A DNA stretch of 64,000 nt, taken from the IMG/VR virus record IMGVR_UViG_2654587728_000014, positions 1 to 64,000 of that record. One strand, given 5' to 3'. This DNA is from a virus (lineage: Duplodnaviria; Heunggongvirae; Uroviricota; Caudoviricetes). Position 1 is the stretch's first letter. Every line of letters starts with the position of its first letter. The notes beneath the pieces are model-generated. The model was not told where the DNA came from and ran no database searches. It worked only from the letters and a program-made list of their open reading frames with translations. The translations under genes and the position numbers were made by a program. This document shows positions 2,965 through 64,000 of this stretch, piece by piece.

Positions 2965-3018
2965 TAAGTAATATGCAGGCGGCGCAGTGCGCCGCCTCTG
3001 ACTGAAAGGAGTTTCCTG

Positions 3019-12976: not shown

Positions 12977-12990
12977 TGAATGCCTCCCGG

Positions 12991-13287: not shown

Positions 13288-13296
13288 GCCGCGCCC

Positions 13297-13569
13297 TCAG
13301 TGCTTCCGGCTGACGGTGATGTGCAGGCCGCCTTCTGCAGTGGTTTCCATCCGGTACGGCACCTCATGCGCTGCCGTGTGGGTTAGTGTGTTCACCAGTA
13401 CCTGCAGGGCAGCCGCCTTTCCGTTGGTCGCCACAATGGCTTGAGCGGTCATGCTGATTAGCGCCGTCAGGACGTGCTTCACATCGGTGAGGTCGCGGCA
13501 TTCACACTCGTTGACATAGTGTTCAACAAGGGTTCGGGTGCGCTGTCGTGCTTCCTGTGGGGTAATCAT
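13297..13569 (-). CDS. hypothetical protein
   Basis: 90 aa ORF in early operon, coupled to neighbours. Confidence 0.45.
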   Translation of the reverse strand: MITPQEARQRTRTLVEHYVNECECRDLTDVKHVLTALISMTAQAIVATNGKAAALQVLVNTLTHTAAHEVPYRMETTAEGGLHITVSRKH

Positions 13570-13760
13570 TGCGAGTCCTCCCTGTCAGGGCGGGAGAATT
13601 CCATGACGGGCACGTCTGCCGAAAAATGCTGGCTGCAGTACGGGCAGACCAGGGTGACGCGTACCGCAGGGATGTGGTATTTACCGGACATCACGGCGAT
13701 GGCGCTGTGAAAACGCAGGGCTGTTATATCCCTCTCGCACTGAATACATTTAAATATCAT
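13566..13760 (-). CDS. zinc-ribbon protein (Com-like CxxC...CxxC)
   Basis: 64 aa MIFKCIQCERDI...VCPYCSQHF resembling Mu Com zinc finger. Confidence 0.5.
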   Translation of the reverse strand: MIFKCIQCERDITALRFHSAIAVMSGKYHIPAVRVTLVCPYCSQHFSADVPVMEFSRPDREDSQ

Positions 13761-13857
13761 GATTTAATTCTCCTCTGTTTCCGGCGTGCAGAAGCCCGCG
13801 GCGCTGACGTCGGAATAAAAAAGAAAATGTTTTTATTAAATAATTAACGTGGTGTGT

Positions 13858-14388
13858 TTACTGCACATCCTGCTCAAAAGGAATTATTGAAAAATCCTCA
13901 ATGTCGCTTTTAATGGAAATACCGGGAATATTTTTCACGGCCTCTTTTTCATTCAGGATAGCGTCTTTATTTATTTCCTCTTTTACACGAATAAAGCGCT
14001 CAAGCCCCAGACGTCTCAGCAGTTCAATGACATTATCCGCCCCGCGAATGCTGACTGACGGCGGACGGTTTCGCCACTGCACCTCGCCGGTGGTGAGGTT
14101 AGCGAACTTCACCTTCCCGTTGCCGGTCAGTTCATCACGGTGCGCCTCACACCATGTCTGGATACCGGACTGCAGTTCGGCCATGCGTTTTTTCAGGCTC
14201 TCGGTGAGCGGGGCATAACGTGCAGTGATGTCGCCAATGGTGTCATTCATTTCTGTTTCAGCCCTGACCAGTTCACGTTGCGCGTCACCAAGCAGTCTGA
14301 TTCCCTCAATGACCTCTTCGCGTGTCCCCGGCACCCAGAGTGCTGCTGCGGCTTTGATACGTTTTGCCCCTTTTGTACTTTTTGCCAT
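13858..14388 (-). CDS. gam: Gam-like host-nuclease inhibitor
   Basis: 176 aa; Mu Gam family by sequence and position downstream of B. Confidence 0.82.
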   Translation of the reverse strand: MAKSTKGAKRIKAAAALWVPGTREEVIEGIRLLGDAQRELVRAETEMNDTIGDITARYAPLTESLKKRMAELQSGIQTWCEAHRDELTGNGKVKFANLTTGEVQWRNRPPSVSIRGADNVIELLRRLGLERFIRVKEEINKDAILNEKEAVKNIPGISIKSDIEDFSIIPFEQDVQ

Positions 14389-14415
14389 ATTTTATGACTC
14401 CTCCTGTTGTGCTGA

Positions 14416-14685
14416 TTACCACAAAGATTCCGGCCACACGACGCGACAGCCGTGCAGTTCGAAAACGCCCTGACGGAAATGTCCCCTGTGGTCATGACCG
14501 GTATACAGATAACAGGCCTTTCCCTGCTCAAGCATGCGCATGCAATGCGCACTCCGGGAAACGCGGATGACAGGTTTGTTACCCCTGATGGTGATGCTTT
14601 GTACATCCGTGTTCGTCGCCTTAAGCGCCATAATGGCTGACTGCACTTTGCTGATTTGCTGGTTGATACCTGTGGTGGATTTCAT
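14416..14685 (-). CDS. hypothetical protein (occupies Mu kil position)
   Basis: 89 aa ORF between B and gam. Confidence 0.4.
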   Translation of the reverse strand: MKSTTGINQQISKVQSAIMALKATNTDVQSITIRGNKPVIRVSRSAHCMRMLEQGKACYLYTGHDHRGHFRQGVFELHGCRVVWPESLW

Positions 14686-14687
14686 TA

Positions 14688-15854
14688 TTAAACCCCTTTG
14701 ACAACGTCAGCGTTGACCTGTGGAACCCCGATTTCAGCGGCCAGATTCATGGCGGCTATTACCAGGTTACTGACGGCCAGCGGATACAGCAGGCTGACCA
14801 TATTTTTACGATGACTTCCCGGATTGCTCAGGCGGGCACGTATGGCATCCACTGCGCTGGCGTCCATAATGTCCGTCAGTTGTTTACCGGCCCGTTGCAG
14901 TTTGAACGTCAGAAACTCTTCAAGGTTATTGTCCAGAGGCAGAAGTTCGACCACCTCACAGCGCTGAACGACTTCACGGACTTCCATATTGCGTTCAGAC
15001 AGTTTTGTCGCCAGTTCCGGCTGGCCAATCAGCACGATGGACAGCAGTTTTTTGAAACCGGACTCCAGCTCAAAAAAGCGTTTGAGGTGTTTCAGTGTCG
15101 GAATGGGCAGACTGTGGGCCTCCTCAATCACCAGAACGTGGCTGAACCCCGCCTGGCTGCTGTCTTTCAGGACGCGATGCAACTGGCGAAAGCGGGCGTC
15201 CTGACTGCGTCTGATGCTTTCCAGTGGTGCGATGGTACTGATAATGGCTTCGGCAATCGCTGCTGCCTTCAGGGTTTTCCCTTTCACATCGTTGTCTTCC
15301 ATAGCGATGATGTATGGCTCGATAACAATTACCGGCGCATTCTCGCGGTTGATACGTTCAGTCAGGTCGCGGCGCAGCGTGGATTTACCCGCACCGGACT
15401 CACCGATGACGGCCATAAACCCACCATGACGGGCTGTCTGGTACAACGCCTCACGCACGTAGCGAATATCCGGGGTGGTGAACACATCATCAGAACCCTG
15501 CATGGCTTCGTCGGCGAACGGGTCACGGAAAAGACCAAACGCTTTTTTGGTTGCTGGAAATAACACCTGTTTTTTGAGTAACATATTCTCTTCCTCACTG
15601 AGGCTCGTTTTATCTGTGGTACCCGCTGTACGGGGCGTGGCCGCGCCCTGTACAGCATCAAAACTCTTCGTTGTATCAATCCCCTGACTTTCCAGCCAGG
15701 ACGCAAGACGCCGGCGCACTTCTCCGGGGCTGGTGCGGGGCCACGCGTTATGATTCACAATCTGGGCCAGCGTGGCCTCAGAAACATCGACAGCTCTCGC
15801 CACCACCGCCTGTGGAATACGGGCCTCTTTCAGTTGCTGCTTCAGTACCAGCAT
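14688..15854 (-). CDS. Mu B-like transposition ATPase
   Basis: Walker A AVIGESGAGKST, N-terminal HTH; probable start MLVLKQ after GGAGGG RBS; ORF track 14688..15893. Confidence 0.8.
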   Translation of the reverse strand: MLVLKQQLKEARIPQAVVARAVDVSEATLAQIVNHNAWPRTSPGEVRRRLASWLESQGIDTTKSFDAVQGAATPRTAGTTDKTSLSEEENMLLKKQVLFPATKKAFGLFRDPFADEAMQGSDDVFTTPDIRYVREALYQTARHGGFMAVIGESGAGKSTLRRDLTERINRENAPVIVIEPYIIAMEDNDVKGKTLKAAAIAEAIISTIAPLESIRRSQDARFRQLHRVLKDSSQAGFSHVLVIEEAHSLPIPTLKHLKRFFELESGFKKLLSIVLIGQPELATKLSERNMEVREVVQRCEVVELLPLDNNLEEFLTFKLQRAGKQLTDIMDASAVDAIRARLSNPGSHRKNMVSLLYPLAVSNLVIAAMNLAAEIGVPQVNADVVKGV

Positions 15855-15864
15855 GTTTCCCTCC

Positions 15865-17634
15865 TCAGTTGCCGTTAACAATGCTGATAACACTGCTGCG
15901 GGCCGGTGTGGTCAGCGTGGCCATGACTTCATCCAGTGCGGCTTCCGGTACGCCGTCCGGGTACTGTGCCGTTAACTGGCGGTAATGTTCCGGCGTCCAG
16001 GTAAGGCCGTCGGCGCTGAACTTATCGCGCAGGGCTTTCGCGGCCTCCACATGAGTCATGGGACGTTGTTCAGTGCGCGGCCCGCGTACGTCAGAGGCCT
16101 GACCACGCTTCGGCATATAGGCCGGAAGTGTGGTGTCGTCGATATGTTTATACGGGTCAAGCCGCCCGCCGAACGGCAGCGCCTTCGCCTTGCGTGCGGC
16201 GGCTGCATCTGCGGCGTTGTCTGTACCGGTAACCAGCGCTTCGGTTTCTTTTGCCGCCATCTGTGCCGGGGTTTCCGGCAGGGCTTTGTAACTTTCGCCA
16301 AATACCGCCGCGCCTTCAGCAAAGCCAAACTCGTTCTTTCTGACCTCTTCGACCAGGAAGAACGTCTCGTGGCCGTCCTCACCGGTCAGAACCACCTGTG
16401 CCACATCGCTGCGCCATGGGTTACGGGTAATCATCAGTTTTTCACCAACCAGTACGCCCGGTACCGTTGATACGTCAAATTCAGTGCCCCGGAACGAGAC
16501 ACGAAGTTTTGGCGTGACTTTGCGGAGTTCTGGTGCCGCCACAGCCAGTTCACGACATACCTCAACGGAAGGCGCTTTTTTCAGCTGCTCAGCAGTAATC
16601 TTCAGCCAGATATCCGTGCGGGTTTTACCGTGGCGGCTGTGAACAGCCGTGGCGTTAAAGTGGCTGCGCCATTTCGCGGCCAGCGCGTTGAGTTCTTCCA
16701 GACTGTGAACCGGCCGGAACTTCAGACCCGGCTCCAGCTTGCGTTCGATAATGTCACGCGCCTTTTCCACCTGTCCGGTGGCGCGGGCGTTATGCGGCTT
16801 GTGCGCTATCAGGTCGATGCCCAGTGAGCGGCACATGTTTTTCGTCATACCCGCGGTGTTTGCCGAGCCGGGGTCGAGATAGAGTATTTTCGGCACGCCG
16901 TGCAGCACGTCTGCGCCGCCACGCTCCTGCATGGCGTTGATAAGCACAGAACACAGGTTCTCACCTGATTCCGCGCCCGTCACATACTCAACGTAAATCC
17001 AGCCGCTGGCATGGTCGGTAATCTCGTAACTCCACACGCGGTCACTGGCGATACGGGCAAGGTTAGCGGGCTTGTTCTTGTAGAACTTCGCGCTGTCCAT
17101 CACCTGCAGCCCTTTATGTCCATTGCTCAGGTAGTAAAGCGTGCAGAGTGAGGCGTCAATCTGCCAGACATGATTGGGATGCAGACTGGCCACTTCGGTA
17201 TGTGGTGCAGGGGCATCCAGTTGTTCCGGGTGCAGGCCATAGTTACGCAGAGCACGGCTGATGGCATCTTCAGACAACGGGAAAAACTCACTGGTGGTTT
17301 CATCTGTTCTGCCTGCGGTGATAAAGCCGTTAGCCCGCAGGGTTTCCACTGCATCTGCGATGGAATAGAGACGCTTACCGTTCTTGCGGGTGGCCTCACG
17401 CAGTGTGGCAGATATCAGCGCGGCTTCGTCGCGGGTCAGGGCGCTGCGCCCGGCATCGGCGCGTTTTTTGCGTTTATCAGTCACAGATACCTCCTTCAGC
17501 CTGCGCAGCAGAGTGGCGCGGGACATGCCAAGTTCAGCACAGGCAGCGTCGTATATTGCACCGCGTTTACCATGCCCCGCGTCACGTGCCGCGCGGGCTG
17601 TTTCAACCAGTTTTTCAGTCAGTGCCGGGGTCAT
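15865..17634 (-). CDS. Mu-like DDE transposase (MuA family)
   Basis: 589 aa; large transposase immediately upstream of B-like ATPase; MuA-like N-terminal DNA-binding and core regions. Confidence 0.88.
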   Translation of the reverse strand: MTPALTEKLVETARAARDAGHGKRGAIYDAACAELGMSRATLLRRLKEVSVTDKRKKRADAGRSALTRDEAALISATLREATRKNGKRLYSIADAVETLRANGFITAGRTDETTSEFFPLSEDAISRALRNYGLHPEQLDAPAPHTEVASLHPNHVWQIDASLCTLYYLSNGHKGLQVMDSAKFYKNKPANLARIASDRVWSYEITDHASGWIYVEYVTGAESGENLCSVLINAMQERGGADVLHGVPKILYLDPGSANTAGMTKNMCRSLGIDLIAHKPHNARATGQVEKARDIIERKLEPGLKFRPVHSLEELNALAAKWRSHFNATAVHSRHGKTRTDIWLKITAEQLKKAPSVEVCRELAVAAPELRKVTPKLRVSFRGTEFDVSTVPGVLVGEKLMITRNPWRSDVAQVVLTGEDGHETFFLVEEVRKNEFGFAEGAAVFGESYKALPETPAQMAAKETEALVTGTDNAADAAAARKAKALPFGGRLDPYKHIDDTTLPAYMPKRGQASDVRGPRTEQRPMTHVEAAKALRDKFSADGLTWTPEHYRQLTAQYPDGVPEAALDEVMATLTTPARSSVISIVNGN

Positions 17635-17649
17635 AGCTTGTCTTCCCTG

Positions 17650-17967
17650 TTATCCGATTCTGGCGGCAATTTTTCTGGCGAGGTCGCACAGTGTTTCGCC
17701 ATCGCAGGTTTTCACCACGGTATTTACCGGTTGCGGTGCAACTACCGGGCGTAATGCTGACTGATTCTGCAGACGTCTTATCTGCTGCATCAGCATCACC
17801 TCCATCGTCAGTACAAACGGGTGCGTCTCCTGTGCGGGTACGCAGATTTCACCGGAAGGGGTCACCACGCGGAAACCCTGCACCATCTCCGGCAGCAGAT
17901 TACACAGTGCGTGCCCCAGTGCCTCCGGGCTGTCCATCAGGGTATTTTGTGTGTTATTCGTATTCAT
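17650..17967 (-). CDS. hypothetical protein
   Basis: 105 aa ORF in early operon. Confidence 0.45.
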   Translation of the reverse strand: MNTNNTQNTLMDSPEALGHALCNLLPEMVQGFRVVTPSGEICVPAQETHPFVLTMEVMLMQQIRRLQNQSALRPVVAPQPVNTVVKTCDGETLCDLARKIAARIG

Positions 17968-18887
17968 TACTGCATATCCTCCGGTCGGTTGATTTCAGGT
18001 TCCGGTTCGGTCAGCCAGGCGGGGGCATCGTTACCCGATGGAGCGGCCTCAAGGTCAAACGTCTCACGTAATGCATGAACACTGCGTTCAATCTGGCAGA
18101 CCAGACCGGCCATGAAATCTCTGGGGGTATCGATCATGTTTTTGGTGCAGTATTCACACAGGGTCTCAAAAACACTGGACAGCCGGACGGCGATAGCCGA
18201 TTCGGCCTCAACCGCTAATGCCGTCACTTCCGCCCGCAATTTTTTCAGTTCTTCGTCTGGCGGCGGAGGTTGCAGGCGCGATTTCTTCTCCAGTTTTGTG
18301 GCCAGTTCGTTGATTTTTTCGTCCTTTCCGGCAAGCACCTGTTGCTGAGCTGCGTTGGTTTCGCGCGCTTCACGCAGGGCGGCCTTCAGTTCGCGGCTGG
18401 TCATGCGATCAATATCATCAAGCGTTGCACCGGCGACGGTTCCACCATCAGCTAATGCGTCGAGTTCTTCGTCATCCAGAACCATCAGTTCATATAACTT
18501 GGTTTTTCCCAAAACGCTCAGCGCTGAGCGTTTTGGCTGTTCATCTCCATTGCCGAGAAATTTCACGCTGGCCTGCATCATGCGACGAGCTACCTGTGGT
18601 GCTAATCCGAGGTCGTTTTCCAGAATATTTGTGAAATCACCATGCGGTTCATTTTCTTTTAAGATGATCAGCCGCTTACCCGCTTCCAACATAGATTCAG
18701 CACTCTGCGCCATATAAAAACGTGCTTCGTGAACGATGCGTTCACGTTCATAAGGCAGTCCATCACCAAACTGCTGCATGATCTCCATGCGATGCTGTGT
18801 CATGGCATTCAGGCTGACGTTGAGATCATCCGACAGCGGTACATCGGCGTTCAGTTCAGTGTTAATCGGTGATTTGGTACGTCCCAT
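17967..18887 (-). CDS. hypothetical protein (DUF3102-like)
   Basis: 306 aa, acidic and coiled-coil rich; domain call from memory. Confidence 0.45.
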   Translation of the reverse strand: MGRTKSPINTELNADVPLSDDLNVSLNAMTQHRMEIMQQFGDGLPYERERIVHEARFYMAQSAESMLEAGKRLIILKENEPHGDFTNILENDLGLAPQVARRMMQASVKFLGNGDEQPKRSALSVLGKTKLYELMVLDDEELDALADGGTVAGATLDDIDRMTSRELKAALREARETNAAQQQVLAGKDEKINELATKLEKKSRLQPPPPDEELKKLRAEVTALAVEAESAIAVRLSSVFETLCEYCTKNMIDTPRDFMAGLVCQIERSVHALRETFDLEAAPSGNDAPAWLTEPEPEINRPEDMQ

Positions 18888-54028: not shown

Positions 54029-55081
54029 TTAGCTGTCGGCGAACTTCAGGCCAGTGACCATCGCGCACTTGCCATAGTCTTCAACGACATAAGCGTCATT
54101 GATGGACTGGTAGGTGGCGATGCGGTTGTATTCCGGTTCGTCTTTCATCAGACGACGCATTGAACCTTTCTGCCAGTAAATCGACAGGTTGTTGAACGAG
54201 GTGATCAGCATCGTTGCATCCGGGAAGAACGGCGCAAGGAACACACCCAGCCCGCCAATGGTGCGCGATGACAGGATGAGCTGTCCGGCGAGTAATTCCG
54301 CATTGGGATTCTGGCCGCTGATGCTGTTCAGCACGGGCAGACGCAGCGAGTTAAACAGGTTGCGCCCCATAATCACCACGAGGTCGTCAGCTTCCTTGTG
54401 CCATTCATCCAGCAGGGATGAGCGTGCGTCCTGAACCAGTGCATCAGCGTTCGCATACTCACCCGCGTGCGCCACGGTGTTGTCCATGTTGCGGGAGGTC
54501 AGCGTCACGTCATTCATTACGCGCGCGCTGGCATTGGTTCTGATGTGCTCCAGCCACCCCACGTTAACGTCCTGAAGCAGCTTGTTGGTGCTGAAGTTGG
54601 ATTTTTCCGCGTGTGACGTGCCGTTAAAGCCGATCATGATGCGGTCAAGCGCCACCTGTCGGGCAATCTGTGCGCTGATGCGGGTCTGGAAGTCATTGTG
54701 CGCCGCCCAGGCATCAAGCTGCGGATACGAAATAAACGTGTCGTAGTTCACCTGCTCACACTGGTACTGACGGGACTTCAGGTCGACAGCGTTAATCGGG
54801 TTGCGGCGATCTGTGCCGTCATAACTGGTATTTGTGCGCGCAATCGGCCCGGTGGTGTCCATGAGGACTTTTTCGCCTTTCTGGTCGGTCACACCGATCA
54901 CGTTAATTTTTTTTGTAAGTTCGGTGCTATCCTTTGAGGCGTTTTCAAAACGCTGCTGCACCGAGGGTTCCACGGTAAATCGCGATACCAGCCCAGAAAC
55001 CGGGATATTGTTAATCGACGCCTGTCGCGTCATGTAGCAGCCCAGCTTGTTACGGGCATTATCTGACATCACCAGATTCAT
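54029..55081 (-). CDS. N: P2-like major capsid protein gpN
   Basis: 350 aa; FTVEPSV and VVEDY blocks as in P2 N. Confidence 0.9.
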   Translation of the reverse strand: MNLVMSDNARNKLGCYMTRQASINNIPVSGLVSRFTVEPSVQQRFENASKDSTELTKKINVIGVTDQKGEKVLMDTTGPIARTNTSYDGTDRRNPINAVDLKSRQYQCEQVNYDTFISYPQLDAWAAHNDFQTRISAQIARQVALDRIMIGFNGTSHAEKSNFSTNKLLQDVNVGWLEHIRTNASARVMNDVTLTSRNMDNTVAHAGEYANADALVQDARSSLLDEWHKEADDLVVIMGRNLFNSLRLPVLNSISGQNPNAELLAGQLILSSRTIGGLGVFLAPFFPDATMLITSFNNLSIYWQKGSMRRLMKDEPEYNRIATYQSINDAYVVEDYGKCAMVTGLKFADS

Positions 55082-55104: not shown

Positions 55105-55974
55105 TCAGAAGTCAGCCAGCTGGTCGGAGGCTGCGCCCGTTGCGGTGAACCGGTTCTGCGGATCGCCGTCCTGCGTGCGCAGCTTTTCCTTCAGTGCTGT
55201 CAGCTCTGTGGTCAGCGAAGTGATTTTCTGGCTGTCCTGCTGATGGCGGGTTTCCAGTGCATTAAAGCGGTCGATAATATCGGCCTGTGACGTTGCGACA
55301 CCTTCCACCGCTTCCTGAATACGGGAGAAACTGGCGTCATCCGCTTTGCGGCCACGGCCAATAATCCCCATAACGCGGTTAAACCACTGGGTGCCTTCTT
55401 CCTGACGTTGTTCGGTGAGTTCGATAAGTTCTGACTCCATAGCGGCGGTGAACATCGCCACGTCTCCCTGCTGACAGTTGAATGTCATCAGTTGCATACG
55501 TTGTTGTGCCGCAAAGGCCAGACGTTCCGTGCCCAGGCTGGCGGGGGTGTCGGTCATTGCCAGCCCGCGCAGGTAAGGGCCTCCCGTGATGGTTGACTGT
55601 GGTTCCAGCTCAATACTGGAGTAAATTTTTTTACCATCGTTAAGCAGGGACATCATGCGAGCGGTCGGCTCAATTTCGGCATACAGTGCCGTGCGGCCTG
55701 CCAGCGGGCCATCGGTTATGTCTTCGGTGCTCAACCCCACAACATCGCCCATAGCGGAAAACTCGCTACCGGGGAGTGGTGACAGGATGTGCTCAATATT
55801 CACACGTGCACCATAAACGGACGGGTTATAACTGGTGGCGGCAGCTTTCAGCATGTCGCCGTTGATTTCGCGCCCGTCTGCCGTCACACCGGAGACAGCC
55901 ACGCGAAACTTTTTGCGGGATGTCTTTTTTTCATTAGTCATAGTTTTTGCCCCTCTGACTGGTTCTTCAGTCAT
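55105..55974 (-). CDS. O: P2-like capsid scaffold protein gpO
   Basis: 289 aa; divergent from P-Q. Confidence 0.85.
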   Translation of the reverse strand: MTEEPVRGAKTMTNEKKTSRKKFRVAVSGVTADGREINGDMLKAAATSYNPSVYGARVNIEHILSPLPGSEFSAMGDVVGLSTEDITDGPLAGRTALYAEIEPTARMMSLLNDGKKIYSSIELEPQSTITGGPYLRGLAMTDTPASLGTERLAFAAQQRMQLMTFNCQQGDVAMFTAAMESELIELTEQRQEEGTQWFNRVMGIIGRGRKADDASFSRIQEAVEGVATSQADIIDRFNALETRHQQDSQKITSLTTELTALKEKLRTQDGDPQNRFTATGAASDQLADF

Positions 55975-56095: not shown

Positions 56096-57847
56096 ATGAT
56101 TCAGGACGCTTTTGTGCGCCAGCGTGCGCGGCAACTTTACTGGCAGGGTTATCCGCCCGCAGAAATATCACGTCTGATGGGAATAAACCCGAACACGATT
56201 TATGCGTGGAAAAAACGCGACCAGTGGGATGAAACGCCACCCGTGCAGCGTGTCACGCAGTCCATCGATGCGCGCCTCATCCAGCTTACTGAAAAACAGA
56301 ATAAAACAGGTGGTGACTTCAAGGAAATAGACCTGCTGACCCGGCAGCTTAAAAAGCTGCATGATGGCCAGCCGGATGTGATGGCCGCAGGAAAGAAAGG
56401 CCGGGCGAAAAAACTCAAAAATCATTTCACGCCGGAACAGATTGCCGCACTGCGGGAAAAAATCATCAGCAGGCTGGAGTGGCATCAGCGGGGCTGGTTT
56501 GACTCCCTGACCCTTTGCAGGGAAGCCGGGATACGTAACAGGATGGTCCTGAAATCCCGACAGATTGGGGCGACCTGGTATTTTGCTCAGGAAGCACTGC
56601 TGATGGCGCTGCGTGACGATGTGGCGCAACCTTACCAGCGTAACCAGATTTTTTTGTCTGCGTCGCGTCGTCAGGCGTTCCAGTTTAAAAGCATTATTCA
56701 GGAGGCTGCATCTGAAGTTGATGTGGAGCTGAAAGGGGGCGATAAAATCATCCTCTCCAACGGCGCAGAGCTGCATTTTCTTGGTACTTCTGCTGCGACG
56801 GCACAGTCCTACACGGGCAATTTTTATTTTGATGAATTTTTCTGGGTCAGTCGCTTTGCTGAACTGCGCAAGGTGGCTGGCGCTATGGCAACCCTCAGCG
56901 GACTGCGGCGCACCTACTTCTCCACGCCATCCACCGAAACGCACGAGGCATACGCCTACTGGAACGGCGACCGCTGGAACGAGAAAAAGGCCTCGCATAA
57001 ACGCCAGCGTTTTTCTGTGGACTGGAAAACGCTGCATAACGGGCTTATCTGCCCTGACCGGACGTGGCGGCAAATTGTCACGCTGGAAGATGTGGTTAAT
57101 CACGGCTGGAAACACACCGATATTGATGAAATTCGTGATGAAAACACCGAAGACGAGTTCCTCAATCTCTATATGTGTGAGTTTGTCCGCGAAGGGGAAT
57201 CGGCATTTAACCTGAATATCCTGATTGGCTGTGGTGTTGACGGATACGACGACTGGAAAGACTGGAAACCTTTTGCTCCCCGCCCGATGGGGAATCGTCC
57301 GGTATGGATTGGGTATGACGCAAACGGCAGCAGTGGAAACGGCGACAGCGGCGCTGTGTCCGTGGTGGTTCCTCCGGCTGTTCCTGGCGGCCGTTTTCGA
57401 ACGGTGGAGACGCGACGCGTTCAGGGGCTGGAGTTTGAAGAACAGGCCAGAGTCATTGAAGAGTTCACGTGTCGCTACAACGTGGAACACATCGGCATTG
57501 ATGTGACAGGCGGGAACGGGGAGGCTGTTTATCAGATAGTGAAACGGTTTTTCCCTGCTGCTATTCCGTACACCTTCACGCTGTCATCAAAACGGTCGCT
57601 GGTACTGAAAATGCTGCAAATAATGCGTGCCGGGCGGTGGGAATACGATCGCGCCGAACGCGAGCTGGTCGCAGCCTTTAACGCCGTGCGTAAGGTGAAA
57701 ACACCGGGCGGCTTTATCACTTACGAAACGGACCGCGCGAGGGGGATCAGCCACGGCGACCTTGCGTGGGCAACCATGCTTGCTGTCATTAACGAACCAA
57801 TTGGCGGCGAAGGAGAAAACGAGCGTTTCACGGTTATGGAGTTCTGA
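56096..57847 (+). CDS. P: P2-like terminase large (ATPase) subunit gpP
   Basis: 583 aa; synteny. Confidence 0.9.
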   Translation: MIQDAFVRQRARQLYWQGYPPAEISRLMGINPNTIYAWKKRDQWDETPPVQRVTQSIDARLIQLTEKQNKTGGDFKEIDLLTRQLKKLHDGQPDVMAAGKKGRAKKLKNHFTPEQIAALREKIISRLEWHQRGWFDSLTLCREAGIRNRMVLKSRQIGATWYFAQEALLMALRDDVAQPYQRNQIFLSASRRQAFQFKSIIQEAASEVDVELKGGDKIILSNGAELHFLGTSAATAQSYTGNFYFDEFFWVSRFAELRKVAGAMATLSGLRRTYFSTPSTETHEAYAYWNGDRWNEKKASHKRQRFSVDWKTLHNGLICPDRTWRQIVTLEDVVNHGWKHTDIDEIRDENTEDEFLNLYMCEFVREGESAFNLNILIGCGVDGYDDWKDWKPFAPRPMGNRPVWIGYDANGSSGNGDSGAVSVVVPPAVPGGRFRTVETRRVQGLEFEEQARVIEEFTCRYNVEHIGIDVTGGNGEAVYQIVKRFFPAAIPYTFTLSSKRSLVLKMLQIMRAGRWEYDRAERELVAAFNAVRKVKTPGGFITYETDRARGISHGDLAWATMLAVINEPIGGEGENERFTVMEF

Positions 57848-58893
57848 TGAGCAGAAAAAATAAAAAAGTGCGCATGAGTTCACGCATTGATCTCGCTGAT
57901 GCGCTCAGGAAAGAATCATCGCTCAGTGCATTCACATTTGATGGTCCTTATCGCCTGACCGGGCATGACCTGCTGGACAATATGTACTGTGCTGATAACG
58001 GGCGGTGGTATGAAACCCCGGTGGACTGGTACGGTCTGGCAAGAGCAGCCCGGCAAACGTCCTGGCATCAGTCTGCGCTTTACTTTAAGCGCAATGTATT
58101 ACTCGGTTGCTACATCCCGCACCCGCTGCTTTCCCGGCAGGATTTCTCGGCGCTGGCGCTGGACTGGTTTGTGTTCGGTAACGCATTCCTTGAGCTTCGA
58201 AGCAATATGCTCGGCGAACCGCTTAAATTACGGCACGCCCTGGCGAAATACATGCGACGCGGAAGCGATCTTGAATCATGGTGGTATGTGCAGGATGGCA
58301 AGGACGCGTTTCAGTTTCGTCCTGGCAAAGTGTGCCACCTGATGAATCCGGATATTAACCAGGAAATCTACGGCATGCCGGAATATCTTGGCGCATTACT
58401 CTCGGCCAGCCTTTCTCATTCGGCGGACATGTTCAGAAAACTGTACTACGACAACGGATCCCACGCCGGGTGCATCATCTACATCGGTGCAGCGCAGGTA
58501 AACCGCGAAAGCATGGACTCCCTGAAAGAAACGCTACAGGGGGCACGTGGTGGTGGTGCGTTTAAAAACGTGCTCATTCATGCGCCCAACGGGGGCAAAG
58601 AGGGGGTGCAAATTTTGCCGTTCCAGCAGATCACCGCAAAAGATGAATTCATGAATGTTAAGGCGGCATCCCGTGATGATGTGCTGGCTGCGCACCGCGT
58701 TCCGCCGCAACTGATGGGGGCGATGCCGGGCGAAAAAAGTGCGTTTGGCGATGTGGAGAAGGCAGCGCGGGTTTACGCAATTAACGAGCTGATGCCCGTC
58801 ATGGAGGCTATGAAGCACATCAATGACTGGCTTGGCGAAGAGGTGATCCGTTTTAACTCTTATGCTCTTCTTGATGAAAAAACAGCCCCGTGA
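57847..58893 (+). CDS. Q: P2-like portal protein gpQ
   Basis: 348 aa; ATGA-coupled to P. Confidence 0.9.
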   Translation: MSRKNKKVRMSSRIDLADALRKESSLSAFTFDGPYRLTGHDLLDNMYCADNGRWYETPVDWYGLARAARQTSWHQSALYFKRNVLLGCYIPHPLLSRQDFSALALDWFVFGNAFLELRSNMLGEPLKLRHALAKYMRRGSDLESWWYVQDGKDAFQFRPGKVCHLMNPDINQEIYGMPEYLGALLSASLSHSADMFRKLYYDNGSHAGCIIYIGAAQVNRESMDSLKETLQGARGGGAFKNVLIHAPNGGKEGVQILPFQQITAKDEFMNVKAASRDDVLAAHRVPPQLMGAMPGEKSAFGDVEKAARVYAINELMPVMEAMKHINDWLGEEVIRFNSYALLDEKTAP

Positions 58894-58910
58894 TGGGGCT
58901 GTCCTTTTTA
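58883..58910. terminator. bidirectional hairpin terminator between Q and the first cargo gene
   Basis: CAGCCCCG-TGA-TGGGGCTG with T-runs on both strands. Confidence 0.6.
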
Positions 58911-59432
58911 CCAGAGTTGAACCATTTTCTGGGTGCCGTCAGGCTTGAGATTATCAATTTCAGAGAGAACGTAATATTGAATGGCTTCACAAACGGTGGT
59001 GTAGGGTGAATTACCTTCTTTAAGTGGCACGATATTATTATTAACGCGAACCTGTATTTCATCGTTATACATTGCGATCGAAACAGGCGTGTGCACGAAC
59101 GCGACTTCGCCAGGTGTGTCGTCAACCACCGTTTCAATACTAAAAGTCAGTTTTCGCTCATCATTGCTGCCCCGTGCTTTGGGGGTAGCGGCAGGGATCT
59201 GGGATAAAGGCATTCTGCGAAATCCTTCGGCTGCTTCCAGTCCGCATGAAACGTAATGCTGGCGATTACCGTCGCTATCTGTCCAGGTCTGTGATGGCAG
59301 CTCCAGCGAGATTTCATAAGCATCAACAATGCCCTGGGCAAGGCGTACAAGCGGGGTCAGATCTTCATTGCGGCGAAAGCTCTCCTTTACCTGCTCCCGT
59401 TTTTCTCTTAACTGCTTGTAATTAATGACCAT
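58908..59432 (-). CDS. hypothetical protein, hotspot cargo (174 aa)
   Basis: ATG after GGAGG RBS; no family recognised; ORF track 58908..59471. Confidence 0.5.
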   Translation of the reverse strand: MVINYKQLREKREQVKESFRRNEDLTPLVRLAQGIVDAYEISLELPSQTWTDSDGNRQHYVSCGLEAAEGFRRMPLSQIPAATPKARGSNDERKLTFSIETVVDDTPGEVAFVHTPVSIAMYNDEIQVRVNNNIVPLKEGNSPYTTVCEAIQYYVLSEIDNLKPDGTQKMVQLW

Positions 59433-59954
59433 AAGACAGCCTCCATTGATTTCTTTGCTCGTATTTTGCACTTATGAAGTATGGTCGGCAAGGTGCCGTA
59501 TCGCTGACGCGCTTCGCTTGTCTGCTGCTTCGCCGGGGCATAAAAAATTTATGCCCCGGCTCTCCAGCTCCTGTATCAATCAGATAATTTCACGACGCCT
59601 TCCAGTTTATCGCCACCATCGACGGTCAGACTCTTACGCAATTCCACCGCGTTGACTGTATGTTCTCGCTGCCTCAGTGCGATTTTGACGGCCTTACCTT
59701 TCACCCCATCAAATCAAAAGCCCTCACGCCTTTTTCATGCTCAGCGTGAGAAATATGGCCATTCTGTTGTGTCTCTGCGACATCGTTCAGGGAATGCTAT
59801 TTACCCCCTGAAACGCGGGCTGTTCCCCCGTCACCTGCGCGCAGAAAAAACGCGTTTTTTTGTGCACGTACGGATCCTTGACGGATCCAGCCACCACGCG
59901 GGCCGGAAGTACAAAAAGTCGTTCAAAAAAATTGTGCAAACTTGTGCACTATCG

Positions 59955-59986
59955 TGCAAACAAAAAAAGCGCCTTATCGGCGCTTC
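59955..59986 (-). terminator. rho-independent terminator of 89-aa cargo gene
   Basis: on minus strand AAGCGCCGATAAGGCGCTT followed by TTTTTTTGTTTG. Confidence 0.6.
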
Positions 59987-59993
59987 AAAAGTA

Positions 59994-60263
59994 TCAATTG
60001 TTGCTGTTTATTAATCGCCAACCACGAACATATGCTTCATAGGCATCTCTGTGCCTTACAGTTCCAGCCTGGCTAAACGGAATGTTAGCTAAAACTAAAT
60101 CATTCTGAGCCATAGCGCGTCCTTCAAGCGCATCTTTTATGCCTAGCTCAAAAGCACAGGCAGCGCATTTGTGCCGACCTTCTTGTCCTTGATATTCAGG
60201 GAGAGACAGAAATGTTGGATTATAACGATGAGGGTTCTTGCAAATACCTGTTTTAGCCCGCAC
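59994..60263 (-). CDS. hypothetical small protein, hotspot cargo (89 aa, Cys-containing)
   Basis: GTG start with GAGG RBS; own strong terminator; no family recognised. Confidence 0.45.
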   Translation of the reverse strand: MRAKTGICKNPHRYNPTFLSLPEYQGQEGRHKCAACAFELGIKDALEGRAMAQNDLVLANIPFSQAGTVRHRDAYEAYVRGWRLINSNN

Positions 60264-60393
60264 TTTATTTACCTCATAGGAAAAATATGCGTGCCTTTAC
60301 AGAGGTGCGTGTAAGCAATAAAATATACGACGCACATTTTGATTTACTTCGGAAGGCACGCATATCAGGTTAAGTGAGCCCGACCGAGTTTTA

Positions 60394-60427
60394 CGCCCCA
60401 ATAGTTGCTGCTATTGGGGCGTTTTGC
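60394..60427 (+). terminator. plus-strand hairpin terminator with no upstream plus-strand CDS (possible small RNA 3' end)
   Basis: CGCCCCAATAG-TTGCTG-CTATTGGGGCG followed by TTTTG; long-range inverted repeat TATGCGTGCCTT...AAGGCACGCATA upstream. Confidence 0.4.
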
Positions 60428-60627
60428 ATGGACAATGCCGCGCAATTATCTTGTCGCTCACAATGCGAACGATCTTACAAAAAGGCACATTACTGTCAAG
60501 ATAATTGATCGTTTTAATCGATAGATAATAGACAATCTATTTGTTTAACAGATCGATTATTGAAGTAAGTGTGCCAAATGGAATGATACTGTCTCTATAA
60601 ACGTGAGCATTTTTCGCGCAGATGCTT

Positions 60628-60939
60628 TTACTCAGGAAATAACGCCCGGATATTCCCAGCCATCTGGCTGGTTATCTTAGCCACTGGTGCAGACTGTGCT
60701 TCAAACTTTTTTGAGCTGATTTGTGTCACAGGTAACATCTCATCATCAGCCCATGCGGCCAGTCGGTAAGCCTCTGCCGGATTCGTCTTCAGAAGTGCCA
60801 GCCCGGCCAGAAAAGCCACGCGTTGGCCGCTTTTGCGGGCTTCTGGTGTAAGGCTGTCCAGCCAGGCGCATGCTTCTCCTTCGTTCTTGACGGCGGCGGG
60901 CTTCAGATAGAAACTTATCCGTCTGGTTGGTGTCGTCAT
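60628..60939 (-). CDS. parR: ParR-like centromere-binding protein
   Basis: 104 aa from MTTPTRRISFYLKP (compare R1 ParR RRTIAFKLNPD); AAGGAG RBS; 4 nt after parM stop. Confidence 0.6.
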   Translation of the reverse strand: MTTPTRRISFYLKPAAVKNEGEACAWLDSLTPEARKSGQRVAFLAGLALLKTNPAEAYRLAAWADDEMLPVTQISSKKFEAQSAPVAKITSQMAGNIRALFPE

Positions 60940-60943
60940 TGGT

Positions 60944-61903
60944 TTACTCCTTGTCCATTGCGTACAGCCCATTAACCAGAGCAAACTGTGGCACCCCGTC
61001 CGCGATGAAAGTCGCATTAACTCCGCAGGCTTCGCGGATAGCGGGTGCCACAATCTCCGCCCCGCCACCGACAACCATCACCCGCCCGTAACCCGAAAAA
61101 ACCGCCAGCGCGCGGATCACGCGTTGTTTCAGTGTTTCTTCCTTTTCACGAATAACCGCCATCAGGCTGGCGTAATGCGCGTCATTGTGGATGTGCTGGC
61201 GCAGCCAGGCTTCATTATGGCGATGTTCGATAATGGTATTGGCGATGTGGTGACTGGTGCGCATACCGTTAGTGGCCATCACCGACAGTACGGCATCGGC
61301 CATAAGAGAAACGCCTACGTGTGGATCGCAAAACACCTGGCTGATACCTGCCAGTTGCCCCTGAACCTTTGCCACATCCAGCGTGGTTCCGCCCAAATCC
61401 ACAATCAGCAGGGATTCAAACGGACTCATGTCAGCCAGTGCTTTAAAGCCAGCCGGAATGGATTCAGGCATAACCCGTACGTTACGGATAGTGAATGCTT
61501 CGCCGTTCTGGTACTCCACCGGGCGCATGACGTTCGCTTTTTTGCGGTTGATGTTGGCCATGTCCGGCTGTGCGTTTGTGTCGAAATATTCGCTCAGTGG
61601 CAGGGTAACAACCACATCCACTTCCTGTGGCGTGATGTCTGATTTGACCAGCGCGTGATGAATGGCAATGACATTCACATCGCTGTACTGGTATTGCGTG
61701 TCGGTCGTCTGGACAAAGCGATCGCTGACCGGATCAAAACCATAGCGCACGCCATCAAGCATGTAGTTAGCAGGCTGCGAGCCACCGAACGGCGCAGACC
61801 ATTCCGACTTGAAGCTGTTCGGGCTGATGGCGTTGCGGCGTTCGCCGTTCTCAGTCCATGCCAGCTTGATGTTGGTGGAGCCGTCGTCGATGTAAATTTT
61901 CAT
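60944..61903 (-). CDS. parM: ParM/StbA-like actin-family segregation ATPase
   Basis: 319 aa; blocks IDDGSTNIKL, SPNSFK, YSDVNVIAIHHAL, VMPESIPAG, LIVDLGGTTLDV, MVVGGGAE shared with R1 ParM. Confidence 0.85.
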   Translation of the reverse strand: MKIYIDDGSTNIKLAWTENGERRNAISPNSFKSEWSAPFGGSQPANYMLDGVRYGFDPVSDRFVQTTDTQYQYSDVNVIAIHHALVKSDITPQEVDVVVTLPLSEYFDTNAQPDMANINRKKANVMRPVEYQNGEAFTIRNVRVMPESIPAGFKALADMSPFESLLIVDLGGTTLDVAKVQGQLAGISQVFCDPHVGVSLMADAVLSVMATNGMRTSHHIANTIIEHRHNEAWLRQHIHNDAHYASLMAVIREKEETLKQRVIRALAVFSGYGRVMVVGGGAEIVAPAIREACGVNATFIADGVPQFALVNGLYAMDKE

Positions 61904-61932: not shown

Positions 61933-62046
61933 CGTTTACGGGATTCTGAAATCCCGTTTTTGCCTGTTTTGTGCGCGCCTCATATATCGCTGCGCGTTTT
62001 TTGCTCATTTACGGGATTCGTGAGTCCCGTTTCTGTCTGTTTTTTG
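61933..62046 (+). repeat. two 41-bp direct repeats, each containing a dyad (ACGGGATTC..GAATCCCGT) and T-rich tail
   Basis: 61933-61973 and 62006-62046, about 80% identical; one in the last codons of A, one between A and parM. Confidence 0.5.
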
Positions 62047-64000
62047 TTTCCACTGGTCAGGCCACCCCGCAGCAGGTCTGCTTTGCGGCTGGCGCGTTCA
62101 GTGGTTTCACTGATTCTCTGTGCGTGCTCTGCGTCGCGGATGGCGCGCAGCATGTCAGAAAGCACGGTAACGGGTGTTTTCATGGTGTTCTGGTCCTGCT
62201 GAAGTGTGGATGCCAGGCGTGCGGCGGCTTCAGGGTCTGATGCCCCCAGCTGTGCCAGATAGCTGGCGACCGGGTTATGGCGGATCTCCGTGCTGCTTAC
62301 GCCATGATTACGGCTCAGACGCTGCCAGAGCTGCGTGATTCGGCTGTCCGGGCGGGTATCCGGTTTGCGTACAATTTCAAATCCCTGCGGTGCAATGATG
62401 CTGCCGTCAACGTACAGACTGCCGCCCCGTAACAGGTGCTGCATCTGTTGTTCACCGATATGCAGGCCGAGAGATTCAGCAGACTCCCGCCATTCTTTAG
62501 CGAGTAACTCGTGGTTATCAGGCAAAGGCCGCTGCTGTTTGCGGCTCTGTGTCCAGTTCTGCATTTCATCGCTGCTGTTTTTTGCCTGTTTGTCACGAAG
62601 CGAACGCATCAGCGCCCGGCGTTCGTGCCGTTTCAGTGAGCGCATCCATTCATTTACTTCAACGCCGTCAGGAAGCTGCGGCCACGGTGCTGGCCGTTCT
62701 TCCGGCTGTTCTGTCCCGTTGTTGCCTGTTTCCTGTACACGGGGACAGTTATTGCCACGAGTCCAAGGGGCGGCAGGGCCGCCCTGAAGGTCAAAACCAT
62801 TTTCGCGGGCGCTGTCTTCCGCTTCCGGTTTGCGTCTTACCAGCTTCCAGTTATCCGGATGCGTGCATACGCGGGAAGACTCCCCAATGAGCGGCGACCA
62901 GATCCCGTAAATCTGTACGCTCTGTTCACCGTAATCGTTCAGCTCATCTGCGAGGTCGTAGGCGGTGCGAATCAGGTAGTCTTTGCGTGGAACAAGTACG
63001 CCACCCTGTTTCTCAATGTAGGTGGCAAAACATCCGGCATCAGCGGCAGCGAGTACCGCGTCCATTGCGTCATCCTTCAGCCGTTGCGGGCCTTCCGGAT
63101 TGCGTGCCATCTGGCTGGCAAGGCGGCGCAGTTCACGCCACACCTGACGGGAGGGGATGCCAAAGAACTGGAACTGACGGACCCGGTGAAGGCGCGCCCA
63201 GCCGATGGCGCGCTCCACGCTCTCGGCCATTGATTTACCTGTTTCGTGGTCAACGCGTGGCTTGCCCGTTTTCGGGTCGATGCCATCCACGGCGCGGCTG
63301 TCCAGGTTCTTTCCGATGTAGGTGGCGATGTAGCTGGTTGGCGTGCCTTTTGAGCCGTCGACGTACTCCGCCTTAAAACGCGGAGTTATGTCATCGCCCA
63401 GCTCGTGGCGGTCTTCCTGAATGGCAATATCGCAGACGTGGGACACGATGGTTTCAATCTCGTCCGGATGTGCAAAGACCATCATATGCCAGTGCACAGT
63501 GCCGTCATGGTGAGGCTCCACCGTGCGGATGCCATACCAGCGCAGGCCGTCGCGGTTCAGTTTTTTGCGGACCGCCGCAAAAAACGTGTTAACCAGGTAA
63601 TCGCTGGAGTCGCGCATTGTGGCCCCGTTCCATTTGGGATTCGGATGACCGTTCTCCGTTGTTGCGTGGTATTTTGACGGGCAGGTGACAGTCAGAAACA
63701 CCGCTCTGTCGCCACGGGCTTCGGCCAGAAGTTCCAGCCCCTTCATGGTGGCCATCATTTCTGCCTTACGGTGAACCGGGTTACTTACTCCCGCGTAATA
63801 CACCGTCTCGAGATCAATCGTGAACCCGTCTTCATTTTCCAGCATGAAACTTTTCAGGAAATCGCGTGTTTTCTCGCGCTGTGCGCGAAACTCGCTTAAC
63901 GCGTCCTGGCTCAGATAGGGTGATGTTTTTCTGGAAACCAGACAGGCGGCGCGGAGTTGTTCTTCCCGCCACTCGCAACGTAACAGCCACAGTTTGCGTT
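61980..64000 (-). CDS. A: P2-like replication initiation protein gpA, C-terminal part (gene continues beyond window end)
   Basis: ORF 61980..63845 open to window edge; rolling-circle initiator with histidine pair HWHMMVF. Confidence 0.85.
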   Translation of the reverse strand, partial: RKLWLLRCEWREEQLRAACLVSRKTSPYLSQDALSEFRAQREKTRDFLKSFMLENEDGFTIDLETVYYAGVSNPVHRKAEMMATMKGLELLAEARGDRAVFLTVTCPSKYHATTENGHPNPKWNGATMRDSSDYLVNTFFAAVRKKLNRDGLRWYGIRTVEPHHDGTVHWHMMVFAHPDEIETIVSHVCDIAIQEDRHELGDDITPRFKAEYVDGSKGTPTSYIATYIGKNLDSRAVDGIDPKTGKPRVDHETGKSMAESVERAIGWARLHRVRQFQFFGIPSRQVWRELRRLASQMARNPEGPQRLKDDAMDAVLAAADAGCFATYIEKQGGVLVPRKDYLIRTAYDLADELNDYGEQSVQIYGIWSPLIGESSRVCTHPDNWKLVRRKPEAEDSARENGFDLQGGPAAPWTRGNNCPRVQETGNNGTEQPEERPAPWPQLPDGVEVNEWMRSLKRHERRALMRSLRDKQAKNSSDEMQNWTQSRKQQRPLPDNHELLAKEWRESAESLGLHIGEQQMQHLLRGGSLYVDGSIIAPQGFEIVRKPDTRPDSRITQLWQRLSRNHGVSSTEIRHNPVASYLAQLGASDPEAAARLASTLQQDQNTMKTPVTVLSDMLRAIRDAEHAQRISETTERASRKADLLRGGLTSGNKKQTETGLTNPVNEQKTRSDI

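Follow-up and report, generated by a model that had tools for sequence, protein, structure and literature searches.

Prophages of the P2 family maintain a hotspot of rapid gene turnover between the portal gene Q and the replication gene A, next to the cohesive-end (cos) site, and in P2 itself this position holds old and tin. The hotspot was described as gpA-gpQ by Rousset et al. (2022; PMC9122126), who place cos between gpA and gpQ and describe the interval as cos-proximal. Here we analyze positions 58,908 to 60,627 of a 64,000-nucleotide (nt) stretch of viral DNA (IMG/VR record IMGVR_UViG_2654587728_000014, positions 1 to 64,000; hereafter the window), an interval that contains two open reading frames (ORFs), ORF174 and ORF89. 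We consider it probable, with a likelihood of roughly 0.7, that these positions constitute the accessory region around cos in a P88-like Escherichia coli prophage, in which a conserved block, itself a probable cos site, lies between an ORF174 cassette and an ORF89 cassette, the latter controlled by an antisense RNA and linked to restriction-modification (R-M) systems.

Other described systems resemble parts of the locus. The transposase of IS10 is controlled by a Dam-sensitive promoter, pIN, together with the antisense RNA-OUT, and the sar/ant pair of P22 and the counter-transcript RNAs of plasmids offer further antisense comparisons. SymE/SymR and RalR/RalA are type I toxin-antitoxin pairs with protein toxins; type I toxins are usually shorter than 60 aa and hydrophobic or otherwise toxic. 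The controller (C) proteins of type II R-M systems are small proteins of the Xre-type helix-turn-helix (HTH) class.

The gene order of the window and its synteny with P2 place the locus at the gpA-gpQ, cos-adjacent position, as an earlier reading of the same DNA (the original prediction) had proposed and as PMC9122126 describes it, and cargo content at this position varies among otherwise near-identical phages. The features on which that prediction was built, namely the two ORFs, their terminators, the palindromes, the GTGCA repeats and a plus-strand hairpin, all lie where it had placed them, and both genes are swappable cargo, absent or replaced in close relatives. The element, which it had likened to P2, is P88-like instead: its backbone carries a parMR partition locus and its cos flank is dissimilar to that of P2. 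Moreover, the window uses two slots around cos, whereas P2 uses the A-side slot only, and the window cargo resembles neither old nor tin nor any PADLOC model. Both window proteins and the parMR pair fall within the table of arrangements published for this hotspot, in which the two proteins are listed as "hypothetical" (Table S5 of PMC9122126). The hotspot is known and a cos site is ordinary; the novelty resides in the ORF89 cassette, which presents a new variation on the antisense-controlled accessory gene together with a small R-M-associated protein. Most of the apparent strangeness of the interval is explained by cos, and the remaining interest lies in the ORF89 family and its predicted antisense RNA.

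Two separately exchanged slots flank a conserved block

Relatives of the element include phages P88, P88_4B11, 520873, and PhiR44_2, and the gene order of P88, 520873, and PhiR44_2 (N-O-P-Q ... parR-parM-A) is the same as that of the window. In the alignment, the sequence from 59503 to about 59961 is common to all four relatives. Homology ends near 59962, beyond which each phage carries different genes, and resumes on the parR side exactly at the parR stop codon. The first slot, from Q to cos, is empty in P88 and 520873, contains ORF174 in the window and in PhiR44_2, and contains an Ogr/Delta-like gene in another lineage. The second slot, from cos to parR, carries ORF89 in the window, as it does in 520873; P88 has two other genes there and PhiR44_2 has four. 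Phage 520873 therefore has ORF89 without ORF174, and PhiR44_2 has ORF174 without ORF89. These alignments show that ORF174 and ORF89 are independent single-gene cassettes on either side of a conserved block, such that the probable cos site divides the gpA-gpQ hotspot into two separately exchanged slots. This division bears on the proposal that cohesive ends drive the exchange of cargo. Coordinates and supporting evidence for all features are collected in Table 1; the non-coding gaps measure 561 bp between ORF174 and ORF89 and 364 bp between ORF89 and parR.

The ORF89 cassette is found in 173 of 5426 complete E. coli genomes and both window genes together in 74 of the 5426, and the hosts of the cassette include the pathogenic lineages enterotoxigenic E. 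coli (ETEC) H10407, O111, and O55:H7. In ETEC H10407 (H10407 and SEC470 records), an IS1B insertion interrupts the hotspot region, and the match consists of two segments that cover a span of 2.7 kb.

The conserved block is most likely a cos site

The alignments also show that 59503-59961 is conserved phage backbone rather than cargo. The block is retained in more than 30 P88-like loci (Table 1). In P2-like prophages of Salmonella and Trabulsiella, only 59814-59961 can be aligned, and within this core the blocks GCTGTnCCCCCGTCnCCTGCGCGC and TCAAAAAAATTGTGCAAAnTTGTGCACTATnGTGCA are nearly invariant. Phased GTGCA repeats fall inside TCAAAAAAATTGTGCAAAnTTGTGCACTATnGTGCA. The extended motif YGTGCAM is depleted in the window as a whole (21 occurrences versus 60 expected), yet five of these occurrences lie within 59861-59959, a clustering and phasing far beyond chance, and the phased array is invariant in the Salmonella and Trabulsiella relatives. 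The ends of the linear P88_4B11 genome record map to a junction that coincides with the most variable stretch of the core in our variability profile. The block also contains a 42-codon ORF that is annotated as a gene in several relatives, but its variable sites are distributed 11/13/11 over codon positions 1/2/3 (19 distinct sequences) with no codon-position bias, and this ORF is probably a non-coding annotation artefact.

In P2, the equivalent position of cos is between Q, with its terminator tQ, and old. Because of this P2-like position, the ends of the P88_4B11 record, the conservation of the core, the enrichment and phasing of GTGCA, and the non-coding character of the 42-codon ORF, we interpret 59503-59961 as most likely the cos packaging site, with a putative cut site and putative protein-binding elements. 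The packaging machinery would then recognize the GTGCA repeats, phased at 10 bp, and the GCTGT..CCTGCGCGC block. The cos regions of P2, 186, and P4 (Ziermann and Calendar 1990, cited in PMC9122126) are likewise non-coding blocks at the end of the portal gene that are conserved among phages sharing a terminase. The P2 site also has short repeated motifs away from Q, with GGTGCAT repeats at the P2 right end.

Several points weigh against the assignment. Unlike the cos regions named above, the window block shows no similarity to the 19-nt end of the P2/186/P4 type or to the P2 flanks (the best local alignment, with a score of 20, falls elsewhere), and the cut site in the window is only a candidate. 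The start of the P88_4B11 record may have been a choice of the assembler or submitter. A literature search found no description of a P88 cos site or of P88 genome ends. We also considered A6CGCGT7 and its flanks as a 19-nt cohesive end, by analogy with the ...CAC/TGCGCGC junction of P2, and did not favor this candidate because it is self-complementary and unconserved in Salmonella and Trabulsiella.

The two palindromes of the block differ in how unusual they are. The perfect 13+3+13 palindrome has a chance expectation of about 1e-3 in 64 kb; it lacks a T-tail and occupies the position of the P2 terminator tQ. The A6CGCGT7 palindrome is expected about once per window by chance, and it is not conserved in the Salmonella (L096) or Trabulsiella (L094) relatives. 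The original prediction had described these structures as part of a 520-bp structured gap. The structures are present, but the gap resolves into the conserved backbone (59503-59961) plus the ends of the two inserted cassettes, and the suggestion that this DNA belongs to a defense system gives way to a conserved backbone element, most likely cos.

A predicted antisense RNA lies opposite the ORF89 leader

ORF89 is preceded by a sigma-70-like promoter and a predicted, strongly structured leader. This leader includes a long hairpin (arms 60353-60365 and 60285-60297) that is followed closely by a U-run and the ribosome-binding site. On the plus strand, a perfect 12-bp stem (arms 60393-60404 and 60411-60422) is followed by TTTT, and no plus-strand ORF lies upstream of the terminator so formed at 60393-60427. 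A convergent promoter-like site is found on this strand within the leader region (Table 1). The plus-strand hairpin most likely terminates a cis-antisense RNA of about 97 nt, a prediction that is well supported computationally.

The support is comparative. The sequence of the plus-strand hairpin occurs in 34 IMG/VR contigs, and these together with the E. coli loci form two cassette types: type A, to which the window belongs, and type B, whose protein is 57% identical and which has an additional 95-aa gene. The two types have in common the upstream palindrome, the sense promoter, whose -10 element contains GATC, the hairpin, followed by T-runs on the plus strand alone, the complement of the antisense -35 element, and an antisense -10 element at 17-nt spacing, whereas the sequence between these shared control elements is unrelated in the two types. 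The sense promoter that is conserved in type B also aligns with the TTGAgg-17-TATAAT promoters of other loci. An example of type B is found in E. coli NZ_OZ462646 (L012, 2263-2895) and in L013, where an unannotated 92-aa ORF89 homolog (L012 2617-2895, minus strand) is followed by the 95-aa gene; the portal-side slot of L012 contains an Ogr/Delta-like zinc-finger gene.

The same layout is present upstream of family members in Providencia, Proteus, Yersinia, Rahnella, Pantoea, Enterobacter, Gilliamella, and a Salmonella phage. In these gammaproteobacterial loci, the sense -35 element is closely preceded by an invariant GATC, and the GC-rich hairpin differs in sequence but not in position. GTAAAG, the complement of the antisense -35 element, is invariant in 11 aligned gammaproteobacterial loci at about 40 nt before the start codon. 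The antisense strand of the Citrobacter, Klebsiella, and Buttiauxella loci reads TTTACA-17-CACAAT, followed about 95 nt on by a canonical terminator with a T7 tail. In 12 of 15 loci the antisense strand forms the more stable hairpin, G-U pairs number 28 on the antisense strand versus 4 on the sense strand, and RNAalifold recovers the hairpin with compensatory double changes in seven of its nine pairs. A covariance model built from these loci has one match in the window, at 60347-60432 (+; 40.8 bits), and this position is the only one found in the 537 kb searched.

Against this reading, the matches of the covariance model are mostly its own training sequences or close relatives and do not amount to independent evidence, the antisense promoter is a consensus match only, with a weak -10 element in some loci, and the hairpin could alternatively act in the sense leader. 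In its fullest form, this alternative holds that the structures within 60264-60627 serve the sense mRNA only, as a stabilizer, an attenuator, or a protein-binding site, and that the antisense RNA does not exist. The leader is indeed highly structured on the minus strand (z = -4.5), and its long hairpin, with a U-run between it and the adjacent ribosome-binding site, resembles an attenuator. We nevertheless consider a purely sense-strand role rather unlikely: T-runs follow the hairpin on the plus strand only in both cassette types, the wobble pairs favor the plus strand by 28 to 4, unrelated loci have a textbook terminator on the antisense strand at the same relative position, and the -35 element of the antisense promoter is invariant.

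Rfam 15 contains no family for the antisense RNA. The window gave only sub-threshold, terminator-like hits, to ctRNA_pGA1 and sar (22 bits versus gathering cut-offs of 43-45), and the equivalent position in eight other loci gave nothing.

A second layer of control is suggested by the distribution of GATC. The window has 164 of these sites versus 244 expected, yet three lie within 60471-60554, one of them inside the -10 element; in addition to the two in the upstream palindrome, the third site of the control region is at 60471. GATC is enriched upstream of stand-alone copies of the ORF89 family in Dam-positive hosts, and it is not enriched upstream of the operons in which a family member (X) stands between a methylase and an endonuclease gene (M-X-R operons). 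The latter result leaves binding of GATC by the ORF89 protein unsupported, and we rejected ORF89 as a GATC-binding protein on the basis of this pattern, which more likely reflects Dam-dependent control of the promoter.

We propose that the ORF89 cassette is a tightly regulated unit, in which a sigma-70 promoter with GATC at and around it would produce an mRNA with a 200-nt structured leader, and a convergent internal promoter would produce the antisense RNA, fully complementary to this leader and ending at the 60393-60427 terminator. The arrangement resembles that of IS10 in that GATC lies over the sense -10 element and a convergent promoter is predicted to give rise to a short RNA that ends at a terminator and is complementary to the 5' portion of the mRNA. 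It differs in that the ORF89 antisense RNA would pair with the middle of the 200-nt leader rather than with the start-codon region. By analogy with the IS10 transposase, we hypothesize that ORF89 expression would be low except in particular states of DNA methylation or replication.

The original prediction had raised a small RNA or a type I antitoxin-like transcript for the plus-strand terminator. The small RNA is upheld as a prediction by the promoter, the covariation, and the G-U bias, but the type I comparison fits only loosely. Under that comparison, the cassette would be a toxin-antitoxin-like module in which ORF89 is harmful in excess and the antisense RNA is the antitoxin, with a role in prophage addiction or abortive infection. 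Like SymE/SymR and RalR/RalA, the cassette is located in a prophage or island and combines a small protein gene with a cis-antisense RNA; the long leader and the predicted, fully complementary RNA with its own promoter and terminator are conserved across genera, and the predicted leader fold sequesters the ribosome-binding site. Rather than a small hydrophobic peptide, however, ORF89 is an 89-aa soluble protein with conserved Cys and His residues, with neither sequence similarity to those toxins nor evidence of toxicity, and the predicted RNA overlaps neither the ribosome-binding site nor the start codon. Many homologs lack an antisense partner, and about 40% of related loci co-transcribe the homolog inside R-M operons with no room for one, which argues against intrinsic toxicity. 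We regard a toxin-antitoxin function as unlikely.

ORF89 belongs to an unnamed family associated with R-M systems

ORF89 has no match in Pfam, PADLOC, or NCBIfam, and its PHROG family is one of unknown function. An exhaustive phmmer search with ORF89 yielded 173 cluster representatives at E <= 1e-3, mostly stand-alone proteins of 80-100 aa, and every named member is called "hypothetical." Near-invariant positions in the family alignment are C8, H12, Q25, R30, H31, C33, C36, Q65, R70, and H71, and the sequence contains two copies of SQxGxxRH(K/R)...AYxxG that constitute an internal repeat. The AlphaFold2 model (predicted local distance difference test score (pLDDT) 89.3; predicted template modeling score (pTM) 0.82) arranges short strands and helices around a Cys/His site; no neighbor was found in the PDB, and no HTH family matched. 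Judging from the conserved Cys and His residues, ORF89 probably binds zinc. The domain also occurs in fusions, at the C terminus of a WYL regulator and of DGQHR/DndB-like proteins and at the N terminus of NOV_C (DUF3883) proteins and of an HNH_2 protein, and C8, Q25, R30, H31, C33, C36, Q65, R70, and H71 are kept in the fusion proteins.

We surveyed gene neighborhoods using one genome per species, which gave 216 ORF89 relatives, and examined the best 80 loci. The surveyed loci come from Proteobacteria, Bacteroidota, Firmicutes, Spirochaetes, Myxococcota, Actinobacteria, and other phyla. Same-strand upstream neighbors are DNA methylases in 20 of 24 cases (12 Dam-like D12 and 8 N6_N4), and downstream neighbors include DpnII-family endonucleases (11 of 28) and second methylases (7 of 28). 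By tblastn, a DpnII-like gene is found within 3 kb in 31-34 of the 80 loci and a Dam-like methylase in 38. The family gene (X) often abuts or overlaps the endonuclease gene (R), as in L091, where X spans 2998-3252 and R spans 3249-4145. Other downstream partners are DUF4062 (in Citrobacter, Klebsiella, and Buttiauxella), AIPR, DUF3644, and DUF6119. Homologs in other phages are located just downstream of cI in a P22-like Salmonella phage and between the antiterminator gene Q and the lysis genes in a Providencia phage, both of which are classic positions for morons and other accessory genes.

Two observations accompany the survey. In Bacteroidota metagenome-assembled genomes (L027 and L028), a 474-aa DGQHR/DndB-like protein with a C-terminal ORF89-type domain has a DpnII-like endonuclease gene directly downstream, a second architecture that ties the ORF89 domain to DpnII enzymes. 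A conserved motif, ggtattgc..ttgttcgagttttagaatataat, recurs in the promoter region upstream of the Dam-like methylase genes of M-X-R operons (L043, L055, L067, L080, L087, and L091); several M-X-R methylases have an N-terminal HTH_17 domain, and the motif may be the operator of a self-regulating methylase.

From gene context, we infer that the ORF89 family is an accessory or regulatory module of restriction or defense systems that is probably nucleic acid-binding, and that the prophage copy is an orphan; the absence of a partner gene in the window prophage weighs against this interpretation. The C proteins offer the nearest precedent. The ORF89 relatives are likewise small and encoded inside R-M operons, directly upstream of or overlapping the endonuclease gene, although the window copy is an orphan. 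Unlike the C proteins, ORF89 has no HTH, and features a Cys/His motif and an internal repeat in its place; no C-box-like operator was identified. A literature search found no description of a small R-M-associated protein like ORF89, and neither the family nor its predicted antisense RNA appears to have been described in Pfam, NCBIfam, PADLOC, Rfam, or the literature that could be searched. If ORF89 regulates or assists restriction enzymes, it would supply a part so far missing from systems that are considered well understood, and in any case it offers a handle on an unnamed family from multiple phyla with a confident predicted structure and no known relative.

What the phage gains from its copy can be framed in more than one way. 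We suggest that the phage would carry the orphan to modulate restriction or defense, for or against incoming DNA. A broader and decidedly tentative version is that the family is a new and widespread class of small regulators or accessory subunits that bind zinc (the X of methylase-X-DpnII operons, and the domain of the DndB, WYL, and nuclease fusions), whose mobile copies in Enterobacterales and Orbales are under the control of undescribed cis-antisense RNAs and Dam methylation-sensitive promoters, the phage copy sensing the state of DNA methylation or replication to modulate restriction of itself or of competitors.

A different proposal makes ORF89 an orphan anti-restriction or anti-defense factor, expressed early from the cos-proximal end, that switches off or misregulates host restriction systems containing the same module. 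The family is embedded in R-M operons, with X overlapping or abutting the endonuclease gene, the cassette is located about 50-700 bp from the putative genome end, and dual control by a GATC promoter and an antisense RNA would be apt for expression in a short burst. E. coli is Dam-positive, however, and DpnII-type systems are untypical of its restriction repertoire; no experiment or homology ties the family to enzyme inhibition. We find this role improbable.

ORF174 is a hotspot-restricted protein

ORF174 matches nothing in Pfam, PADLOC, or NCBIfam, and PHROG 5091 is a family of unknown function. Its homologs, down to 46% identity, are confined to E. coli, Salmonella, and Trabulsiella (Enterobacteriaceae), and all contexts examined lie in gpA-gpQ hotspots of P2-like prophages, where the gene usually converges with the portal gene. 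One homolog is located instead on the gpA side, adjoining HicB and Phd/Fic modules. A 187-aa reading from an upstream GTG start was rejected, as the homologs give it no support. The AlphaFold2 model (pLDDT 77.8) has two helices at the N terminus, one at the C terminus, and an antiparallel sheet, and no fold match was found. This class of fold is common among protein-binding, immunity, and inhibitor proteins and does not constitute evidence of function. We found nothing that points to a role for ORF174, and we describe it as a hotspot-restricted, uncharacterized protein, one more such gene of this hotspot.

The original prediction had viewed the cargo as a candidate anti-phage system, with each protein having its own terminator. 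ORF89 does have its own, and the hairpin at the end of ORF174 can serve Q as well. The homology and fold searches suggested there as a check diverge for the two proteins: ORF89 is a member of an unnamed R-M-linked family with a confident model, and ORF174 has no family or fold match. A recognizable anti-phage system did not emerge, with neither protein matching PADLOC, Pfam, or NCBIfam. That the whole interval is a two-protein defense island (ORF174 and ORF89, possibly with the structured DNA), guarding the lysogen from other phages in the manner of old and tin of P2, is doubtful. In its favor, the location is a documented defense hotspot, the two genes vary as cargo and have expression signals of their own, and ORF89 relatives adjoin restriction enzymes and other defense-type proteins. 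Against it, each gene occurs without the other in a close relative (520873 and PhiR44_2), the intervening DNA is backbone found in phages with neither gene, PADLOC matches none of it, and neither protein has a recognizable enzymatic or effector domain.

Backbone genes and minor observations

Table 1. Coordinates, strand and supporting evidence for features of the accessory region and its flanks in the window (a dot denotes no strand assignment)
Feature	Position	Strand	Evidence or remark
Gene N	54029-55081	-	
Gene O	55105-55974	-	
Terminase gene P	56096-57847	+	
Portal gene Q	57847-58893	+	Left boundary of hotspot; identical E. coli and phage records annotate it as phage portal protein
Shared Q/ORF174 terminator	58882-58902	.	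Terminator scan; hairpin with T-runs on both strands, overlapping the portal stop codon
ORF174 cassette (slot 1)	58887-59503	-	Insertion relative to P88, P88_4B11, and 520873 (alignment); present in PhiR44_2 and related records
ORF174 (174 aa; phrog_5091)	58908-59432	-	Start MVINYK; GGAGG ribosome-binding site
Conserved non-coding backbone, probable cos/packaging region of P88-like phages	59503-59961	.	92-100% identity in >30 P88-like loci; alignment with four relatives
Perfect palindrome, 3-nt spacer	59532-59560	.	Inverted-repeat scan; arms 59532-59544 and 59548-59560; backbone; also conserved in L098
42-codon ORF	59576-59704	-	Annotated gene in P88, P88_4B11, and PhiR44_2; inside the conserved probable cos region
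Probable cos core	59814-59961	.	GCTGTnCCCCCGTCnCCTGCGCGC at 59820-59842 and TCAAAAAAATTGTGCAAAnTTGTGCACTATnGTGCA at 59923-59958; 73-80% identity in Salmonella (L096) and Trabulsiella (L094) P2-like prophages
A6CGCGT7, 16-nt perfect palindrome	59845-59860	.	Conserved within the E. coli P88 group only
Junction of the two ends of the linear P88_4B11 record (NC_049391), candidate cos end	59913/59914	.	Mapping of record ends
Three YGTGCAM repeats, one orientation	59933-59959	+	Exact 10-bp spacing (59933, 59943, 59953), a fourth at 59861-59867; candidate binding array for terminase or accessory protein
ORF89 cassette (slot 2): promoter, leader, predicted antisense RNA, ORF, terminator	59962-60627	-	Boundaries from two alignments
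ORF89 intrinsic terminator	59966-59986	-	Terminator scan
ORF89 (89 aa; phrog_3941)	59994-60263	-	Conserved Cys/His; GTG start; GAGG ribosome-binding site
Predicted ORF89 mRNA 5' leader, ~200 nt	60264-60465	-	Strongly structured; fold -72.4 kcal/mol, z = -4.5 versus shuffled
Antisense promoter-like site TTTACA-17-TAAAAT	60296-60324	+	Prediction; RNA start near 60331
Predicted cis-antisense RNA, ~97 nt	60331-60427	+	Fold z = -3.7 versus shuffled; ends at hairpin and TTTT
Sigma-70-like ORF89 promoter TTGACA-16-TAAGAT	60472-60499	-	Promoter prediction; GATC overlapping -10; mRNA start near 60465
Imperfect palindrome, 26-nt arms, upstream of ORF89 promoter	60501-60560	.	GATC at 60507 and 60551; candidate operator or Dam-sensitive control; conserved in types A and B
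parR (StbB-like)	60628-60939	-	Pfam PF10784 and annotation; backbone; with parM, right boundary of slot 2
parM	60944-61903	-	Annotation; backbone
gpA-type replication endonuclease gene	61980-63845	-	

The element is a P88-like (Xuanwuvirus, Peduoviridae) E. coli prophage of the P2 family, and many E. coli strains have chromosomal prophages that match its DNA at 98-99.8% identity. Where P2 has orf91, the element carries a plasmid-type partition pair, an arrangement reported in about a quarter of P2-like phages (Rousset et al., PMC9122126). The pair, ParM and ParR of the StbA/StbB type, is thus located between gene A and the cos hotspot of an integrated prophage. No centromere-like repeat array was identified for parMR: A and parM are separated by only 76 bp, and the ORF89 cassette accounts for the palindromes downstream of parR. 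Those at 60501-60560 were considered as a parC centromere for ParR and rejected, as P88 and PhiR44_2 have no such DNA and carry cargo genes directly after parR.

Elsewhere in the window, a 6.1-kb stretch at 11987-18131 contains no GATC at all, versus roughly 16-24 sites expected, at a normal G+C content of 51-59%. This stretch is the early region of a Mu-like transposable prophage, with genes for a DDE transposase, an ExeA/MuB-like protein, and Gam.

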